In this document: positions 5,568-51,621 of the stretch, piece after piece | Layout of the letters: every line of letters starts with the position of its first letter | How positions within the stretch are numbered: the first letter of the stretch is position 1 | Assembly: GCA_965220975.1 (NCBI GenBank) | Contig: OZ244855.1 | Span: 1,390,730 to 1,454,729, forward strand | Reading direction: 5' to 3' | DNA length: 64,000 nt | From: Candidatus Poriferihabitans sp. | GTDB lineage: Bacteria > Pseudomonadota > Gammaproteobacteria > Arenicellales > Poriferihabitantaceae | Notes under the pieces: generated by a model | Seen by the model: only the letters and a program-made list of their open reading frames with translations | Database searches by the model: none | Told to the model about the DNA's origin: nothing | Made by a program: the position numbers and the translations under genes

Positions 5568-7490
<1,923 letters not shown>

Positions 7491-42986: not shown

Positions 42987-43327
42987 TGGAGCCCGCAGAG
43001 GGATTCGAACCCCCGACCTGCTGATTCTTGCCCGCTATCGTTTTCACGACCCAGATAGATTCTCTGGTTTGGGGTCTGGACTTTCTCTTCACCATACCTC
43101 AAGACAAATGCATCTTGTGATGGCTTAGGTGGGCGGTGTAAAGTCTCTACACTCAATATCGAAACATCGATACTTAGCACGGGATTGCCATTCGTCTTGG
43201 CGCGGATCAATTTCATCAAGAAGAGTCAGGTTTCCCCGTTTTAGCCGCCTCCACTTGACCAGTTTCCTTGATCAAGGTGCAATTTTGATTTACAAATCAG
43301 CTGCTCTGCCAACTGAGCTATGCGGGC
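42987..43327 (-). tRNA. tRNA-Thr(UGU), intron-split (exon 1 43327-43292, exon 2 43026-42987)
   Basis: Joined exons give a 76-nt cloverleaf with GCUGA-UUUGUAA-UCAGC anticodon arm; canonical thrU position ahead of Tyr-Gly-Thr-tuf. Confidence 0.95.
43027..43291 (-). ncRNA. Group I intron (IC3-like), 265 nt, no ORF
   Basis: 5' exon ends in U and the intron ends in G. P1 UGU/GCA, P2 with GAAA loop, P3 GGCGG/CCGCC, P4 ACGGG/CCCGU, P7 GACU/AGUC, P9 UCGU-GAAA-ACGA. Core strings GUGUAGAGACU, CCCACCUAAG and UAUGGUGAAG are as I recall from the Azoarcus intron. Confidence 0.92.
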
Positions 43328-43666
43328 CATACCGGTTTAAGATGTGATTGCTCGGTACAATCACAAACTTGTTGTCATTTTATCCTGACAGCTACTGATT
43401 TTCAAACATTATTCATGTCTTTTTTAGGGAATTATATAGTTATTTAGTGCCTGCCAGAAAACCCCTGTTGTTCGCCGACGGCAGGAAAATTTTACTCGGA
43501 AACGGTCTCAGGATGGGACCATTTCGTCTATAAATTCATGAATTGTGCGGCGCACAATATGAATATTGTGCCAAACAGACGGGTTTTTTTCAAGCATAAA
43601 AACCTCCCAGACATAGCTCTCCAGTCCCAGCAAACCGGGAGGCCAAACGGATTTCAATTGGAGCCG

Positions 43667-44968
43667 CTAAGCGGCGAGGCGCAGGCGCTTCTTTTGCTTC
43701 CGGCGAAGCAGTAGACCCATCCGATGAATATTCAGAGTGAGTACCGACAAGGCTACGGTGCGGGCAAAACCATCCGCACCATGAGTACGAACCCGATCCA
43801 AACCCCGGTGCTCCAGATTGTCAATGGCCGATTCAACCGCCGGGTGATGGCGACGCTGAGCCACAAATACCTCTTCGCTCTCCCGTTGCCGGTCAGCCTG
43901 ACCAAGACCCCCTTTCTTCGGCAATCCATTGTAATCGAGCAACTCGTCAAGACGACGGTTGGTGACACTGTGAAAACCCCGATCAAAACTCACCCCACGC
44001 AGTTGTGGATAGGCCCGCTGGGTCGCTTCGACCATCGGCACCGCATAGTCTGCATCCGTACCTTGCCACATCACCTCATGATGCAGGATAAAACCATGCT
44101 GGTCCTCCAGAATACACACCGGAACACCGAACTCGACCGGCGTTCCAGACTTGCCCTTCGAAATCCAGCGAGTGTGAGGCTGGCAGATCGAAAACACCTT
44201 CTCTGACTGCGGGATCTTCTCGCCCTTGAGTAAACGACGGTCAACCAAATCCACATGTAGCCGAGCATAGTACAAATAATAATCGATCACTGCAACACAG
44301 GGTGGACGATCGAATTCCTCAACCAGAATGCGGAGCGTTGACTCCGCACGCTCGATGAATTCCTGACACCGGTTCAAATAGGTTTCAATCGGATCCGGTT
44401 TCGCCTGCGAGGTCTTGCGTACTCGATTGAACAGTTGCTTGACCGACCGGGTCAGGTGAGCTGACTGGTGCCAGCCTTTCAAATCATGGGCCTTGACCGC
44501 CTTCGCGGTCTCGCGAATCAGACCACGAATCGCATCCCGCAGTAGACTGACGTCGGTTGCGTAATGCACATCGGTTTCCACCACAAAGGAATCACAGCGC
44601 CCGAGCAAGGGCACGCCAGACTTTTTTCCAGCCACCTTGTGACCACTGTCTACCACCAGTGGATTGACCTCTGCCAACAGCTCCGGAGTCAGTAGCTCGA
44701 CATTATCGATGATCGTCTGAAGTGCATACTGGTCATGCTTCGAGAGACTGGAATGTCCCAAAAACAGGCGCACTGTCCGGTGTTCATTGATTAACTCAAT
44801 GTAGCCGATCATGGTCGCAACCAAGACCCTGCTTGAGCACTCCCATTACCAGAATCCGCCATGACTCCATGCCCGGACGACCGTTGTTTCGGTCCTTGCC
44901 GGGCAATATGTGCTGGTCCAGCAGGGCAAACAAGGCCTGGCGTGTATTCGGGTCCCGATACAGATGTT
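43667..44968 (-). pseudogene. ISNCY-type DDE transposase, frameshifted and 5'-truncated
   Basis: GRPGMESWRILVMG, CDSFVVETDVHY, SKGKSGTPVEFG, FDRGFHS, VESAIDNLEHRGL. An extra T near 44797 (LH-tga instead of LHEL) shifts the frame; the N-terminus is cut at ~44969 by the duplicated segment. Confidence 0.8.
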
Positions 44969-46034
44969 TAAAAGGCATGACCAAATCAGTAGCAGGTACT
45001 GGGTCAGTCTGAAAGCAGGCAGGTGGGCACGCCCCCGGCCCAACTCCAGAAGCCTCTGCAGGTCGGGTTCTGCGTCAGCGTCTGGCAGCCCTTGCCGCCA
45101 CCGGCCAGGATGCGGATCGCCGGGTTGTAGACCTTGTACTTGTCGAATTCGCGACTGTCGGCGGTTTTATTCAGCGTGAGGTACATCTCACCCCCGCCTC
45201 CGTAGCCGATGTTCTGGCCGGTGCGCTGCCGAACCTCAATCGTGTGCTGGCCTATCAATCCTGTACCCAACGACGCTCTTCCGTTGCTATAGAAGTTCGT
45301 CCATCCCGTTATTGCCCCTCTCCTGTTCCGAAACTCGAAGAATCTGTGGTCGCCCGTGGCCTGCATGTAAAGGGCGCTGAACCCGGTCCACGCATTGCCG
45401 TCATCCTGCTTGGGCGGTATCCGCAGCCGCAGGGTCGCCACCCGCCCCTGATCGCCGCAGCCGGTCAGCACGTTGCGGCCGGGATTGTCCAGCACGATGA
45501 CCGGCTTGTAGTTGTTGTGGGCGCGAACGACCTCGGCTGTGGCCAGGGTGGGCAGTAGTGTCAAGGCCACCAGCACGGTGGCAAGGACCGTCAGGCGGTC
45601 AAGGGGGGGGGGCAATGTCATTAACTTAAGCATTGTTTATCTCCAAATAGTTATCGATTGTAGTAATTATTAAAAGATTGAGATCATTATTATACGAAAA
45701 TGCTCTCGTTTTTCGTAATATTTAGATATTTGGGCATTTTTAACCGCCAAAGCCATACTCAAGGAAACAACAATTCCTAAAGTTAGTGACATTAGGGGGG
45801 CTCACGTGTCGCATGGTAAGGTCACCCGTGTGAATGTCCTGCAGTCTAGAAGCTTGAGCGACTCGAAGGCAAATTCTATTTTCAAACTCAGACACTGCCA
45901 TTTATTTCGTGTCGTGTTCATGTCATAACTGCTATTAAAGAATGCTCAGATAAATGGCATACAGGTATAGCATGCCAACCTGAACATTCAGTTGATTTAG
46001 AGGTGTTTTATTATAGTTCAGCACACCAGTCAAG
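44969..46034. repeat. Segmental duplication, copy 1 (partner 49821-50984)
   Basis: ~45500-46034 is identical to ~50449-50984 except for one G in the G tract; left ends share TAAAAGGCATGACCAAATCAGTAGCAGGTACTGG; the middle is diverged. Confidence 0.95.
45004..45633 (-). CDS. Secreted 4-Cys protein of unknown function, paralogue A (C10 tract, in frame)
   Basis: GGAG RBS 7 nt before ATG; signal peptide ending ATA/EVV; motifs TGCG.QGRVATLRLRIPP and GGKGCQTL.QNPTCRGFW.W.GG.PTC. Confidence 0.8.
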   Translation of the reverse strand: MLKLMTLPPPLDRLTVLATVLVALTLLPTLATAEVVRAHNNYKPVIVLDNPGRNVLTGCGDQGRVATLRLRIPPKQDDGNAWTGFSALYMQATGDHRFFEFRNRRGAITGWTNFYSNGRASLGTGLIGQHTIEVRQRTGQNIGYGGGGEMYLTLNKTADSREFDKYKVYNPAIRILAGGGKGCQTLTQNPTCRGFWSWAGGVPTCLLSD

Positions 46035-46040
46035 CTTAAA

Positions 46041-46279
46041 GAGTTATGGCTGAAAGTAGTGCGCGGGGCTGCCTGAGCCGCGACACCATGCTCGCCATGA
46101 TGTTCAAGCTCGGCCAGTGCGCGGAATCCCGCTGGCGAAGGCTGCGCGGGTTCCGCAGGCTGGGACAGGTCATCGAGGGAGTGCCATTCAAGGACGGAAT
46201 CTAGGTACAATCAGACACGAACACGGTAGCCGCTGGATGAACCCCTTTCCGCCCCGCGCACTACTTTCAACCATAACTC
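46041..46279 (+). mobile_element. 239-bp internally deleted IS256-family element (MITE)
   Basis: 28-bp TIRs (GAGTTATGGCTGAAAGTAGTGCGCGGGG, 1 mismatch); flanks AAGCTTAAA / TAGCTTAAA; 46061-46204 translates to ARGCLSRDTMLAMMFKLGQCAESRWRRLRGF..VIEGVPFKDG*, an IS256-like C-terminus. Confidence 0.85.
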
Positions 46280-46550
46280 TAGCTTAAACCTCAAGCATTT
46301 GAGTTGTACGCATTTTCATCACCAGTACTGAAAAACCGTGACAGTCCCGTTTTTCAGGAGTCTTATCGGCATTGAGATAAAACTCCCGAATAGAAACTTC
46401 ATTCATTGTCATTGAGCGGGTTAGTCTGGACCTGCTTTAAAATCATCGACGGGAATAATCAAATATTCCGTTTCTAATAATCTGGATATGAAACCATCCA
46501 AAGATGCTGACTCATTCTGAAAAGGAAACGAGTGGATAACTCTGAAGAGA

Positions 46551-47855
46551 TCAGTTAAGCGATGAAGATTCGTTGCGAATAGCGGTATCGGCTAGTTGGG
46601 TTGAGTTCTCTACCATCCTGCCCAGATCGAGTATATAGGTACGAAAAGAGGGGATCGGGCACATAAATCGATTCGCTGATATTTTGTGCAAAGCTCCCTG
46701 ATGCACCAAATGAACGAAGAAGGAGTCCACATCCATCCCGGGTGGAAAGCAATAGGTTTCGGGATCAGTCTTATGTAATTCTTTCATCAAATATTTAATT
46801 TGGGAACGACTCTGATTGCAATCCAGTTCTGTCATTACTTTCGTAGTCAGATTGATGGCATCTTCCATCTGATCTGAATATTGATGGTCGTAATACAGAT
46901 CTCTTTTGGTTTTGATTTCGTCGCTTATTTTTTTCCATTCCAGCTTGCCGAGATCGCCTCCGGCTCTTAGAGCTTCTCTACCAAATGCCCGGAGCACAAT
47001 ATGCAGGTGGCGGGGCCAACCATCACAAGGCTCAATCAGTCGATTAACCTCATGCTCAAATCCGACTAGATCAATCCCAAAATGCGCACAGGATTTTGCC
47101 ATGAACTCCTGAGCCTCCGAATCTGGAAAACAACCAATATTGTGTTTCTGCTCAGGAGGTATACGGGTCAAGTCCATCTGATTGGCTGAGTATTCGGTAT
47201 CGCTGAGACCAGCCAACACCAATGCAATCGGCAATCCGCAACCATCGTGTAAACCTTGCAACAGCTTGGAGAGGGGATCGTCCGAATCACGTTTAATCCG
47301 CTGTGCCTCATCAATAGCCAGCACAATCGGCCGGTCAAATCCACCGTGCTGTTTGACCCAGGTCCTAAAAGTATACCAATTTGCGTCCGGCTCCGTACCT
47401 TCAATACCGGTTTCCTTTTTGTGACCGAATCGGAACGGTCCAAATCCAAATCCAGACTTGCTTCCAGTGTTTTTGCTTATCCTTGCCATAAATTCTTGGG
47501 CTTTTGAAGGGTTGATCTTCTCGGCTAGTGGCTTGAGAATATTGACTGGCCCCTTGATTCCGTTGGAATTCAGTGCCACCACCATCGGTGCTTTGCCAAC
47601 ACTCTGCGTATACAACGTCTTAGGATTCTCCTTAATCTCATTCACGATTGAACTCTTGCCCGCCCCGGGTGCACCCTGGATAATACGGGTTGTTTTCGCT
47701 CCCCCATACTGTTCGCTTCCGGTACCTTTCCATACCCGTTTTGTTGCCCGGGCAATGTCGCCTAGGACTTCAGCCCGTCCAACAAACACAGGCGGGGGAT
47801 CACCTTCGTTTAACCCGAGAAAAGACTTCAGTTCTCGTTTTTGATCTTCATTCAT
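46551..47855 (-). CDS. Stand-alone AAA/STAND-like P-loop ATPase
   Basis: PPVFVGR.EVL leader, Walker A QGAPGAGKSS, Walker B LAIDEAQR, helical or possibly winged-helix C-terminus. Confidence 0.8.
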   Translation of the reverse strand: MNEDQKRELKSFLGLNEGDPPPVFVGRAEVLGDIARATKRVWKGTGSEQYGGAKTTRIIQGAPGAGKSSIVNEIKENPKTLYTQSVGKAPMVVALNSNGIKGPVNILKPLAEKINPSKAQEFMARISKNTGSKSGFGFGPFRFGHKKETGIEGTEPDANWYTFRTWVKQHGGFDRPIVLAIDEAQRIKRDSDDPLSKLLQGLHDGCGLPIALVLAGLSDTEYSANQMDLTRIPPEQKHNIGCFPDSEAQEFMAKSCAHFGIDLVGFEHEVNRLIEPCDGWPRHLHIVLRAFGREALRAGGDLGKLEWKKISDEIKTKRDLYYDHQYSDQMEDAINLTTKVMTELDCNQSRSQIKYLMKELHKTDPETYCFPPGMDVDSFFVHLVHQGALHKISANRFMCPIPSFRTYILDLGRMVENSTQLADTAIRNESSSLN

Positions 47856-48738
47856 CGATACTACTCACCGGCTTTTATGCTTTCTCGAAATCATACCTGC
47901 AGGTACAAACCACCAATCGAAGCACATCACCAAAGTCAATGCAAGTGCTGAAGCACTGAACCGTTGGTTAAAACCTCTGTCATATTGTTGTACCAGCATT
48001 GGGTGATTGACTAGTCGATTGTACAACACCTGATAATACTTACCTACACCAGAAACCTGAAAATAGTCGTTTCGATCTCATATGATCGGTTAATTTATTC
48101 CCGTTGTCACAGGTATTACCAGTTTGAATCTATGATCGTATGAATAGCAGCTGAGCGAATCGTCTATCAACTATCCCACTACAGTAAATGGAATGGCTTG
48201 TTCTGTCCAGATCAGCTGAAATTAACACCGCATATTGAATTTTATTTTTGGACGGGTTTGTTCTCAATATAGTTCGTTTCAATAAATCGATAACGTATTC
48301 ACTAGCAATCGATGAATATTGAATCATGTTATCTGTGATTTCTTACTGATTTGATCAAAAAAATGGGAATGAGTGACTTATTAAGTGAATCGTTTCGCGA
48401 TTCGATTTGATTTTTCTGGGTTTCAGTGTTTGCATGTTATTGAGCATACGGACCGGATTGACCACTGTGTTCAGAATATTCTTTTACGGTTTATTTCTCG
48501 ATATTTGAAGTAATAGATACATATGGAGGAACGAAAGAACATCAGTGCAATGGGATAGTGTCCCTATTGCACAGGTGCAGAGTCTAATGACCCTGCATTT
48601 GTAATGGTAACCTCTGATTTAGAGATTACGGATTTGGAATGAAAAATATGAATTAAAAGGGAATTGTACCGAAGGTTTGCAAATCAAGTTTGACAGTAGT
48701 AAAGTTGTGTTTGAGTTATTCTTACGTTCTGTTATCAT

Positions 48739-48807
48739 GCGTGATATGGGATTCGTACTCCCATATCCAAATCAACACTTAACAGAGATAAGGTTGAACC
48801 GCATGAG
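48739..48807 (+). mobile_element. IS200/IS605-family left end with subterminal hairpin
   Basis: GATATGGGA-ttcgtac-TCCCATATC hairpin directly upstream of the tnpB ATG; homologous copy at 56286-56354. Confidence 0.7.
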
Positions 48808-49541
48808 CGATAATATCACATATCGAAACATCACTTACCGCTTGATTTCGGGTTCGGAGTCGAAAGCTCGCAAGCTTGCAGGTCAGACTGGGGCTTGCCG
48901 TTTTATCTGGAATTACTTCTTGGGCGAAAACCGAGATCAAATGAATCAGCATCGAGTATTTCCTGATCATCACCCTAAGCCGCCAACTTCTTTTTTTCGT
49001 TGGGTGTTCAATTTACAAAATTGCGTCTGGAGATCGATAGGCGGAATGACTATTTCTGTTTGATTACTCGATCTGTTTTGAAAGATCAAGCGGACGCGTG
49101 GAAGGCTGGTTTTCAGTCGGGTAAAGGATTTCCAAAGTTCAAGTCCAAACATGGATCTAATCCTTCGTTTGCGATTCCTGAAAAGATCAAGATACAGGAT
49201 GGCAAACTGCACATCCAAAAGATCGGTTGGTTGCGAATCCAAAGAAAAGGTGGCAATCCATATCCTGAGAGTAAGCCGGTCAAGACAACCGTAACCCTGC
49301 AAGCGGGCAAATGGTATGCCGTTGTTTGTTATCCGGTTGAGATACCTGAAAAGATGGATGACGGAGTAACCGCAGGGGTTGATCGAAATGTTAGACAAGT
49401 TGCAGTGGTGGATAGCAACGGCAATGAGCATATACACTACTTGCCCGATCTGGCGAAAAAAGAAGCCAGATTAAAACGATACCAGCGCAGGATGCAAAGG
49501 CAGGTTAAAGGTTCAAACCGCAGATACAAGACGAAACGAAA

Positions 49542-49702
49542 GGGGCTTATATACATTACTTGACACAGGCCAATCTTTCCCACAATCGGGGGCGATATGG
49601 TCAATCAACTGTCTATCGGATCCCACCTTCTGAGACTTTCGTGCTGGTTGAAGCTGTTTAGCCACACGATTTCATCCTTGTCAAGTAATGTATATAAGCT
49701 CC
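49542..49702. mobile_element. 161-bp MITE, IS1595-family-like ends
   Basis: TIR GG(G/A)GCTTATATACATTACTTGACA with a 21-bp perfect core; exact 8-bp TSD AAACGAAA (49534-41 and 49703-10); excision restores the tnpB frame (KTKRK|VQKAHRNI). Confidence 0.9.
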
Positions 49703-49820
49703 AAACGAAAAGTGCAAAAGGCGCATCGAAATATATCCAACATTCGTAGCAACTGGCAACATCAAACCAGCCGTAAGATTGCCGATCAAGCCAGTTTGGT
49801 AGTGCTAGAAGACTTGAACA

Positions 49821-50984
49821 TAAAAGGCATGACCAAATCAGTAGCAGGTACTGGATCAGTTTGAAATTTTCTTTTTGCGGCAAGGTTTCGGGACGGTCGG
49901 CTTGCGGCCCGCTACGACACTGGCGTCACTCCAGCAGGCAGGTGGGGCTTCCCCCACTCCAGTCCCAGAAGCCTCTGCAGGTCGGGTTCTGTTCCAGTGT
50001 CTGGCAGCCCTTGCCGCCAAGAGCGATGAGGCGCATTGCAGGACTGTAGATCTCGTGCTTGTCCTTGTCGCGGTAGTTCAAACTGTCCTTCTCTAGCGTG
50101 AGGTACATTTCGTATCCGTCACCAAAGGTGATGTTCTGACCGCTCTTTGCCCGAATCTCAATCGTGTGCTGATGACCTTTGCGGATGATTGTTTTAGGCA
50201 ACGCTACTCGTCCATTTTCGGGATTGAAGGAATTCCAATCGCTTAAATAGGAGTCGTTTGCTGTTGCTGTTGGTATGCGAACCTCGAATTTTTCGTAGTT
50301 GTTATTGGCTTGTATGAGAAGAATATGGGTCCCACTCCACGCATTCCCGTCACTCTGCGACGGAGGAATCCGCAGCCGCAAGGTCGCCACCCGTCCATGC
50401 TCGCCACACCCCGTCAGCACATTGGGACCGGTATTGACCAGCACGATGACCGGCTTGTAGTTGTTGTGGGCGCGAACGACCTCGGCTGTGGCCAGGGTGG
50501 GCAGTAGTGTCAAGGCCACCAGCACGGTGGCAAGGACCGTCAGGCGGTCAAGGGGGGGGGGGCAATGTCATTAACTTAAGCATTGTTTATCTCCAAATAG
50601 TTATCGATTGTAGTAATTATTAAAAGATTGAGATCATTATTATACGAAAATGCTCTCGTTTTTCGTAATATTTAGATATTTGGGCATTTTTAACCGCCAA
50701 AGCCATACTCAAGGAAACAACAATTCCTAAAGTTAGTGACATTAGGGGGGCTCACGTGTCGCATGGTAAGGTCACCCGTGTGAATGTCCTGCAGTCTAGA
50801 AGCTTGAGCGACTCGAAGGCAAATTCTATTTTCAAACTCAGACACTGCCATTTATTTCGTGTCGTGTTCATGTCATAACTGCTATTAAAGAATGCTCAGA
50901 TAAATGGCATACAGGTATAGCATGCCAACCTGAACATTCAGTTGATTTAGAGGTGTTTTATTATAGTTCAGCACACCAGTCAAG
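49821..50984. repeat. Segmental duplication, copy 2 (partner 44969-46034)
   Basis: See copy 1; the offset changes from 4949 to 4950 across the G tract. Confidence 0.95.
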
Positions 50985-51124
50985 TATTATGACGGAATAA
51001 ATCTGACTGGAATATGACCGGAAATTATTTACTCACCCCCTCAGTAACTAATTTCTGGACGGTTGGTCGGCGTCTCAGACGGTCGCCCTTCGTTGAACCT
51101 TCCCGCCCGTAGTGGTATCCAGTA
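49849..51124. mobile_element. 1276-bp non-autonomous cargo cassette inserted in tnpB
   Basis: Ends are TACTGGAT/ATCCAGTA with GCAGG on both sides (equivalently a 10-bp direct repeat CAGTAGCAGG); removal restores the tnpB frame (KSVAG|TVDNPGKN). Confidence 0.8.
49926..50583 (-). pseudogene. Secreted 4-Cys protein paralogue B, frameshifted in C11 tract (possibly phase-OFF)
   Basis: ATG 50583 gives MLKLMTLPPPP*; removing one C restores a ~218-aa homologue of 45004-45633 with no other lesion. Confidence 0.75.
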
Positions 51125-51621
51125 GCAGGAACGGTTGACAATCCGGGCAAGAATGGAATAGCGAAGTCTGGTTTGAATCGTGAAATAAACGAAACAGGTT
51201 GGTATGGACTGGAACAGAAACTGAATTACAAGGCAGAGGTAGTCAAGATCAACTCGGCCTACACTTCGCAAGCGTGCAGTGCTTGCGGTCATGTCAGCAA
51301 GGAGAATCGAACATCGCAAGCGGTGTTCAGGTGCATGGCCTGTGGCCATGCCGAAAACGCGGAGCTGAACGCGGCCCGCAACATGCTGGCCTCCGGGATT
51401 GGGGCATCTGCACGGGGAGGGGCGTTATCGTTGGATACCCCTTTGATCCGTGAAAAGATATACGCTGTTGGCAACGGTTGATATTGCAAACAACTATATA
51501 ATTCCCCTTTTTTAACCCCTGCAAATCTACCTATTTGCCCATGTCCGAATCGCAATGTTGCATTGCAAGAAAACTCAAGCAATGCCTCTTTTGGGTGAAC
51601 TCCTGTTTTGGACCGTGAACT

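Follow-up and report, generated by a model that had tools for sequence, protein, structure and literature searches.

The question raised by this locus is why two related genes for secreted proteins should differ, at the very beginning of their reading frames, by a single cytosine. The genes, called A and B here, lie in a stretch of 64,000 nucleotides (nt) that was analyzed as a whole (the window; positions 1390730-1454729 of contig OZ244855.1, assembly GCA_965220975.1), and the genome it belongs to, that of Candidatus Poriferihabitans sp., is one contig of 3.37 Mb. Our analysis makes it likely that A and B are diverged copies of a horizontally acquired putative cassette, that the length of a poly-C tract in their leaders gates translation, and that about 90 other genes in the genome are gated alike. 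The cassette would be about 0.9-1.2 kb in size, bounded by terminal repeats, and would encode a small secreted beta-sandwich protein.

Since A and B are both on the minus strand, their tracts read as G10 and G11 on the plus strand (Table 1); these are the sole G/C runs of at least 8 nt within the window. A previous reading of the sequence alone (the sequence-only reading) had described two genes that both begin with ATG CTT AAG TTA ATG ACA TTG and continue from codon 8 into C10 in A, which is in frame, and into C11 in B, which ends as MLKLMTLPPPP* although the rest of B is intact. The coordinates and translations bore this out, as did the frame downstream of the B tract (49926-50561), which is open for 211 codons and encodes a protein 64% identical to that of A. 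The leader was correctly seen as shared, but more than the leader is shared: a 649-nt block (45387-46034 in A and 50336-50984 in B) is 96.8% identical, with all 20 substitutions confined to 45397-45488. The distal 546 nt of the block (45489-46034), spanning the signal peptide, the tract, the leader and 422 nt upstream, are identical save for the tract length. To judge from the sequence, this part of A and B was homogenized recently, and the tract appears to be the sole change since then. The gene bodies are 74% identical (96% in a 46-nt stretch at the 3' end), with a synonymous divergence (dS) of about 0.7 and a ratio of nonsynonymous to synonymous divergence (dN/dS) of 0.55-0.65, and B, open over 208 codons, is still without a second lesion. 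The G+C content of gene A is 62.6%, compared to 47.6% genome-wide. Its signal peptide is of the Sec type (MLKLMTLPPPLDRLTVLATVLVALTLLPTLATA, followed by EVV), with an A-T-A cleavage motif read from the sequence, and leaves a mature part of about 175 amino acids.

We propose that slipped-strand mispairing during replication adds or removes one C at the tract. With C10, C13 or C16 the leader is in frame (MLKLMTL-PPP-LDRLTV...), and the signal peptide and the mature protein would be translated. Any other length would bring a TGA one to four codons past the tract, and the exported protein would not be made. In the present sequence, C11 leads to TGA at once, and C9 or C12 leads to LTA-TGA, i.e. a TGA after three codons. 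The stops in both off frames are set by TTGACCGCCTGACGG, which lies directly behind the tract and is conserved among the homologs.

The behavior of the tract was followed in a second, independent assembly and in 18 sequencing runs, the latter examined as contigs assembled at k=31 rather than as reads; these contigs break at the tract as the paralogs share leaders. In the ENA assembly ERZ25072152, contig ctg52185_6x_l spans positions 43052-51355 of the window, and its 8,305 nt are identical to the window but for one indel, which makes tract A C11 instead of C10. Tract B is C11 in both, and gene A was left uncalled by the gene caller in that contig. Run X2 agreed with this assembly: its sole contig across the tract was C11, at a depth of 11.7 compared to 6.9 for A-specific plus 5.9 for B-specific sequence. 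In the deep runs X1, X3/X4 and X6, the C11 contig took 49-52% of the shared-flank depth, a share consistent with A=C10 and B=C11; X4 had an additional C12 contig at about 7%, for which library slippage is possible, beside C10 and C11. In X8, C11 accounted for a depth of 17.8 out of 24.4 and the A-specific depth was 18.2, and most A copies appear to be C11. Two Illumina metatranscriptomes gave further lengths. A 497-nt contig of X7 ran from A-specific sequence at 45126 through C10 to 45622 with zero mismatches, and the single tract contig of X11 (depth 16.8) was C9, while A-specific (8.75) and B-specific (6.72) contigs both existed in that run. Across the RNA and DNA contigs of the samples, the lengths were thus C9, C10, C11 and a minor C12. 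Neither C10 at both loci nor fixed lengths everywhere, which the sequence-only reading had named as findings that would speak against it, was observed in these assemblies and contigs.

To some extent, a one-base difference of this kind could come from homopolymer error in assembly or sequencing, in which case both lengths would be the same and fixed and there would be no switch. The genomes in which the gene family occurs are long-read metagenome-assembled genomes (MAGs), and the consensus of long reads is weakest at long homopolymers; runs of length 10 are oddly rare in this genome (7 runs, compared to 18 and 50 at lengths 9 and 11), and the second assembly has a coverage of only about 6x. 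However, an Illumina RNA contig ties A-specific sequence to C10 in X7, and another RNA contig from the same run, for the paralog at 6041, is C9 and matches the assembly. Moreover, in three deep samples (X1, X3 and X6) the shared depth divides roughly equally between C10 and C11, as A=C10 and B=C11 would have it, and one sample holds C11 only and another C9 only. We consider error a very unlikely explanation.

The two genes had also been viewed as a pair toggling between two variants of an exported protein, and this part of the proposal found no support. Tracts A and B vary independently, because both are C11, and hence off, in ERZ25072152 and only C9 is present in X11; a mutually exclusive pair is ruled out by the former. 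In addition, there are about 91 leader tracts genome-wide. With independent tracts, a cell could be A-on/B-off, as in the window, off at both, or in other states.

The RNA contig depths in X7 were 31 for A (on) and 38 for another on gene at 1352770, compared to 0 for B (off) and 1-2 for an off gene at 1357256. They run in the direction expected for a switch, although this observation is anecdotal. It might be asked whether the tract acts mainly at the level of RNA or the ribosome, by polymerase slippage or frameshifting, so that expression would be constantly low whatever the DNA length. Long homopolymers are sites of transcriptional slippage, best documented for A/T runs, and the C9 form was seen in RNA only (X11). 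Yet the C9 contig carries the whole depth in X11, not a minority of it, the DNA lengths differ between the assemblies, and in X7 the RNA had the DNA length, C10, and no RNA of B was seen. An effect at the RNA level is quite unlikely to be the main role of the tract.

Long tracts are a property of the whole genome. There are 141 C/G runs of at least 9 nt, compared to about 13 expected under a model of independent and identically distributed bases; with 116 runs of at least 11 nt compared to 0.7 expected, the tracts are not due to chance. The histogram of run lengths is bimodal, with per-base counts of about 1019, 203, 21-27 and 4 for runs of 5, 6, 7 and 8 nt and a further peak at 11-12, and the longest A/T runs in the genome do not exceed 10 nt. 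The codon CCC makes up only 21% of the proline codons, and therefore the runs seem to be selected as DNA and not as poly-proline. Selection for poly-proline at the protein level was ruled out on this ground and because most tracts are out of frame.

We defined a leader tract as a run no more than 36 nt downstream of an ATG, with an open frame of at least 60 amino acids behind it and a signal peptide at the start of that frame. By this definition there are 91 leader tracts, usually with GGAG before the ATG; the frame is kept in 20 of them and lost in 71 (P = 0.012 when tested against one third). The 84 leader genes with frames of at least 100 amino acids fall into 19 sequence clusters, and A and B form a cluster of their own. 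The largest cluster has 39 members with only three in frame (P = 2e-4), and a lipoprotein cluster consists of three genes of about 600 amino acids (at 1301041, 1850862 and 3177416; lipobox LSGCGGGG) that have a C11 leader run and are all out of frame. The most frequent sequence behind the tracts, TCGCTAAACTAGCA, encodes LAKLA in the on frame, and its off frames run into TAA and TAG. We suggest that the same device would gate these other secreted-protein and lipoprotein genes, about 90 in all and most of them off in the consensus, and therefore that the genome would hold a large stochastic repertoire of exported proteins.

Runs of C11 or longer were present in all eight genomes of the genus and in seven of the nine genera sampled from the family. 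In the same order, 10 other families had almost none; the alphaproteobacterial MAGs containing the homologs of A and B had them in abundance. A genome of another genus in the same family (G010) had C runs of about 20-30 nt (e.g. C2:17425-17455) and 554 overlapping matches to C11 in 2.3 Mb.

The homologs of A and B are few. Among 5.8 billion proteins, 19 members of the family were found, none with a name and all from large contigs. Besides A, 11 of 18 were annotated from an internal codon (e.g. MALTLLPTL...), and five full-length ones show PPP(PP) close to the N-terminus. Their DNA was examined at 14 loci in eight MAGs labeled Paracoccaceae, Aestuariivita, Alphaproteobacteria and Arenicellales, and at 13 of these loci the corresponding position is occupied by C9-C18, with three in frame. 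Paralogs with identical flanks differ in length within a genome (one has C15, C16 and C18, another C10 and C13). The proposal of a slipped-strand contingency tract that gates translation was thereby strengthened, since the lengths differ among assemblies and samples, the off frames stop, B is intact and the tract is kept in nearly all of the homologs. Gene A is 85-87% identical in nucleotides to three of these loci (L007, L008 and L018), and 40 further genomes from the taxonomic family to which its genome belongs yielded no relative of it (E <= 1e-10). Outside this genome, the gene family was met only in MAGs of Paracoccaceae, Alphaproteobacteria and Arenicellales. By these sequence comparisons, gene A appears to be a recent import.

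It is also conceivable that B is a young pseudogene, that decay is likewise under way in the majority of the 71 out-of-frame genes, and that the tracts are mutational hotspots or insertion scars rather than a selected switch. The high share of out-of-frame leader genes (78% overall and, within the largest family, 36 of its 39 members) would suit this view, as would the debris of insertion sequences (IS) that fills the region and the weak constraint indicated by the dN/dS between A and B. However, the off genes are without a second lesion and their frames remain open for 160-270 codons behind the tract. In alphaproteobacterial and gammaproteobacterial genomes alike, the tracts stay 9-18 nt long, when unselected runs should shrink; relic runs stranded behind a mobile element, described below, have indeed shrunk to C5-C7. 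Stops in both off frames right behind the tract, furthermore, represent a conserved design. Decay of this kind is therefore an unlikely account, and we retain the gate as the preferred one.

Several points weigh against the gate. Contigs lose rare variants, and a tract cannot be assigned to A or B past the shared flank of about 110 nt, because of which the assignments in X2, X8 and X11 are depth arithmetic and approximate. The second assembly, of low coverage, may share reads with X2, and long-read homopolymer error or slippage in the polymerase chain reaction could yield a minor C12, the platforms of X1-X6 being unrecorded. Two unique tracts outside the leaders, G11 and G12 (in L021), were equal in X1, X3 and X5, and therefore the lengths in the consensus do not fluctuate wildly. 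The genome also has mutS, and the switching rate may therefore be modest. The support for the gate comes from the two assemblies, the homologs and the DNA and RNA contigs.

The G12 just mentioned (1355318-1355329, corresponding to L021:5819-5830) ends an open reading frame (ORF) of 200 amino acids (L021 5231-5833), and 53 nt after it, in another frame, an ORF resembling an N6-adenine methylase begins (L021 5886-7466; LGQYFTPRHIV). A one-base change in this tract, constant in the three runs, might fuse both ORFs, and the locus is a candidate phase-variable methyltransferase. Two other non-leader contexts recur: ATCAT-C12-14-ACTTGACTTCG in four copies (260516, 2642274, 2728117 and 3145007) and GTTCAAGTCCGAAGTGCAACAC-C12-15 in three (785194, 2746475 and 3220568). 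Both may be the ends of repeated elements.

The leader shared by A and B has an origin of its own. It appears to be the terminal repeat of a miniature inverted-repeat transposable element (MITE) that was inserted in the original poly-C tract, and the present start codon and leader would then have come later than the cassette, via an element of 150-180 nt. The right arm of the element bears GGAG, ATG and the seven-codon leader adjoining the live tract. Its inverted repeats are perfect over 17 nt (AATGTCATTAACTTAAG / CTTAAGTTAATGACATT) and extend imperfectly to about 32 nt; it is small (about 150-182 nt), is without a transposase gene, and occurs in eight full-length insertions, A and B included, besides fragments. 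In the Paracoccaceae homologs, ATGCGACACGTGAT joins C10-C14 directly and TTGACCGCCTGACGG follows. The order at these donor loci is ...GTTCAGTTTGAAAATAGAATTTGCC...ACACAGGAGACCTTGCC ATG CGA CAC GTG AT, C10-14 and TTGACCGCCTGACGG, whereas at A and B it is the shared upstream sequence, ATGCGACACGTGAG, C6, the 182-nt element, C10 or C11 and TTGACCGCCTGACGG. A and B are thus filled sites (old leader, C6, element, tract, gene), and L008, L009 and L019 are empty ones (old leader, C10-14, gene). When A and B are counted as one, seven distinct copies of the MITE have seven distinct old leaders on their left, each with the live tract of a different gene; the old starts include ATGATCCG-C5, ATGAAACAAATGA-C13 and ATGATTAATTTTTTGCATTG-C7. 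The flanks are C5-C13 on the left and C5-C14 on the right, in which a target duplication made of C only would be masked.

A sister MITE family (about 150 nt, repeat AATGGCATTCACTTAAG) lies outside C runs at 1508043, 1690212, 1927731, 2936109 and 3015571. Direct repeats of 10 bp mark the ends of two copies and, in degenerate form, those of a third, and the "leader" of this family has TGA where the poly-C subfamily has TTA. A multicopy element of 1.36 kb beside one sister copy was considered as an autonomous IS with the repeats of the MITE and was found to be unrelated. The leader MITE was not found in the genomes of 25 relatives and is known in this genome only.

These observations lead us to a further proposal, which we hold tentatively and as somewhat less than an even case: the poly-C tract would double as the site at which a species-specific MITE docks (with a 10-bp target duplication), the repeat of this MITE would have been exapted as a translation start, and the cassettes would be plug-and-play contingency genes of a whole community. 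The insertion would split the run and strand the old leader behind a decaying C5-C7, while the start carried by the element (GGAG, ATG and seven codons ending at the tract) would join the part of the run that can still switch. A foreign cassette, 85-87% identical to the Paracoccaceae copies, would in this way gain native expression signals and keep its gate. Repeat-bounded cassettes common to alpha- and gammaproteobacterial co-residents would form the system.

The proposed boundaries of the cassette can be traced in its surroundings (Table 1). The region upstream of the old leader (45815-45901) is 83-85% identical to the upstream regions of L008, L009 and L018. Its only sigma-70-like site (ATGGCA..17..TAGAAT, 45901-45873) scored at background level, and a search of the upstream region against Rfam gave nothing. 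Repeats of 19-20 nt bracket the gene; the pair at B (GGTACTGGATCAGTTTGAAA / TTTCAAACTCAGACACTGCC) matches at 75% and that at L008, a Paracoccaceae locus, at 89%. At B, an insertion of 1.27 kb splits a tnpB gene, with CAGTAGCAGG at both junctions (49842 and 51123). The right junction is 272 nt past the 5' repeat of the cassette (50849), and the 272 nt between them have no assigned element. Because A carries 25 nt of tnpB flank, it was copied from a B-like locus with a cassette in tnpB and was not inserted afresh. A is bounded on the left by an IS and on the right by a 241-nt MITE, both later than the copying.

Table 1. Positions, in window coordinates, of the features in and around genes A and B
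Feature	Position	Strand	Description
Gene A	45004..45633	-	209-amino-acid precursor, in frame, no internal stop
Tract A	45603..45612	-	C10 in the sense of the gene; ON in the window
Gene B	49926..50583	-	leader as in A, then C11 and TGA
Tract B	50552..50562	-	C11; OFF in the window
Leader MITE at A (putative)	45613..45794	-	182 nt, 29% G+C; terminal inverted repeats TAATGTCACTAACTTTAG... / ...CTTAAGTTAATGACATTG
Leader MITE at B (putative)	50563..50744	-	identical to the copy at A
Old-leader relic	45795..45814	-	ATGCGACACGTGAG, then C6 (G6 at 45795-45800 on the plus strand), on the far side of the MITE
Original cassette upstream region	45815..45901	-	degenerate Shine-Dalgarno site, -35/-10-like site, 5' terminal repeat GGCAGTGTCTGAGTTTGAAA
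3' terminal repeat, cassette A	44995..45014	.	GGTACTGGGTCAGTCTGAAA, overlaps the stop codon
3' terminal repeat, cassette B	49847-49866		B copy of the cassette A repeat
tnpB-derived flank at A	44970..44994	+	25 nt (..K G M T K S V A)
tnpB N-terminal part, IS605-type	48677..49864	+	HTH_OrfB_IS605, OrfB_IS605; interrupted by the insertion of cassette B
tnpB C-terminal part	51123..51481	+	Cas12f1-like_TNB

The 241-nt MITE (46040-46280 of the window) forms the right limit of the sequence common to A and B. It has terminal repeats of 30 nt (97% complementary), carries the direct repeat AGCTTAA at either end, encloses the apparent C-terminus of an IS256-type transposase, and had high coverage in all runs.

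As for the protein, no Pfam family was found for A or B. AlphaFold2 modeled the mature part of A as a beta-sandwich, with an overall predicted local distance difference test score (pLDDT) of 69.5, values reaching 80-93 in the core, and a predicted template modeling score (pTM) of 0.62. The Cys-rich C-terminal tail has the conserved motif GGKGCQT..NPTC.GFW.W..G.PTCLLE. Foldseek searches of the PDB gave only generic Ig-like sandwiches at template modeling (TM) scores of 0.30-0.38. Assignments to the pilin, chaperone and PAD families were considered and rejected, given the absence of a Pfam match, the pLDDT value and the generic nature of the fold matches. The predicted function is that of an exported, probably disulfide-bonded module for binding or surface interaction.

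For a few mucosal pathogens, repeat-based phase variation is a textbook matter. The present case extends its logic to uncultured, host-associated bacteria and to an unusually pure and large form, in which about 90 exported-protein genes share one leader design, the majority of them silent by their consensus sequence, and the same design is found in unrelated bacteria that share the cassettes. This suggests strong fluctuating selection on exposed or secreted proteins, e.g. through recognition by host cells, phages or neighbors, that is met by a stochastic repertoire. It also matters for annotation, as gene callers truncate or miss such genes, in the manner described above for the relatives and for A in the second assembly. 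The leader MITE, if the proposal is true, would be a rare case of a mobile-element repeat serving as a translation start, with insertions in a hypermutable tract. Full-text literature searches turned up no account of poly-C leaders in marine symbionts, sponge-associated ones included.

Switches of this type are classical, the pilC and opa genes of Neisseria being examples; what is new here is the family of genes, the setting in a host, the scale and the putative supply of a leader by a MITE. In Neisseria gonorrhoeae, pilC1 and pilC2 reportedly carry a poly-G tract in the region coding for the signal peptide, a finding ascribed to Jonsson and colleagues in 1991. The two systems are alike in having a G/C run in the leader codons, one-base slippage between on and off, and two paralogs that switch independently. 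They differ in that there is no relation in sequence or fold, and in that about 90 genes here, from at least 19 families, have the tract 4-8 codons past the ATG, in an uncultured, non-pathogenic, host-associated bacterium, with the gene on a cassette shared between bacterial classes.

The opa genes of Neisseria have CTCTT repeats in their leaders, a pentamer where the present repeat is a homopolymer. Like the opa genes and the phasome of N. meningitidis, the system described here consists of a multigene family of exported proteins with a repeat in the signal-peptide codons, most copies being off, and the repertoire is of similar size, 115 genes having been predicted for N. meningitidis (PMC5084427). 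The Neisseria phasome, however, uses many types and positions of repeats, whereas there is one design here: a Shine-Dalgarno site, ATG, 4-8 codons, Cn and a signal peptide, with both off frames stopped. Campylobacter has a few dozen tracts, mostly in genes for glycosylation and surface structures, and is not known to have MutS/MutL mismatch repair. In comparison, the present genome has its 141 tracts mostly in secretion leaders and has kept mutS. In the poly-G phasome of Campylobacter, as analyzed with PhasomeIt, G/C homopolymers of 8-13 nt are dominant and run lengths are bimodal (PMC6321876). The likeness to our genome lies in these two features, a single dominant repeat type made of G/C homopolymers and bimodal lengths.

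Correia elements are MITEs of Neisseria, about 100-155 bp in length, that bring promoters. The leader MITE resembles them in being short and multicopy, in having terminal inverted repeats and no transposase, and in altering the expression signals of its neighbor. Unlike them, it would sit inside a poly-C run in a coding leader, its repeat would encode the ribosome site, the ATG and seven codons, and it would replace the translational start rather than add a promoter. The putative cassette, for its part, is comparable to mobile insertion cassettes of the MIC231 type, being without a transposase, bounded by terminal repeats (19-20 nt at A, B and L008) and provided with one passenger gene. It departs from them in that the repeats at B pair to only 75%, the right tnpB junction is not the cassette repeat, and A was copied together with its tnpB flank.

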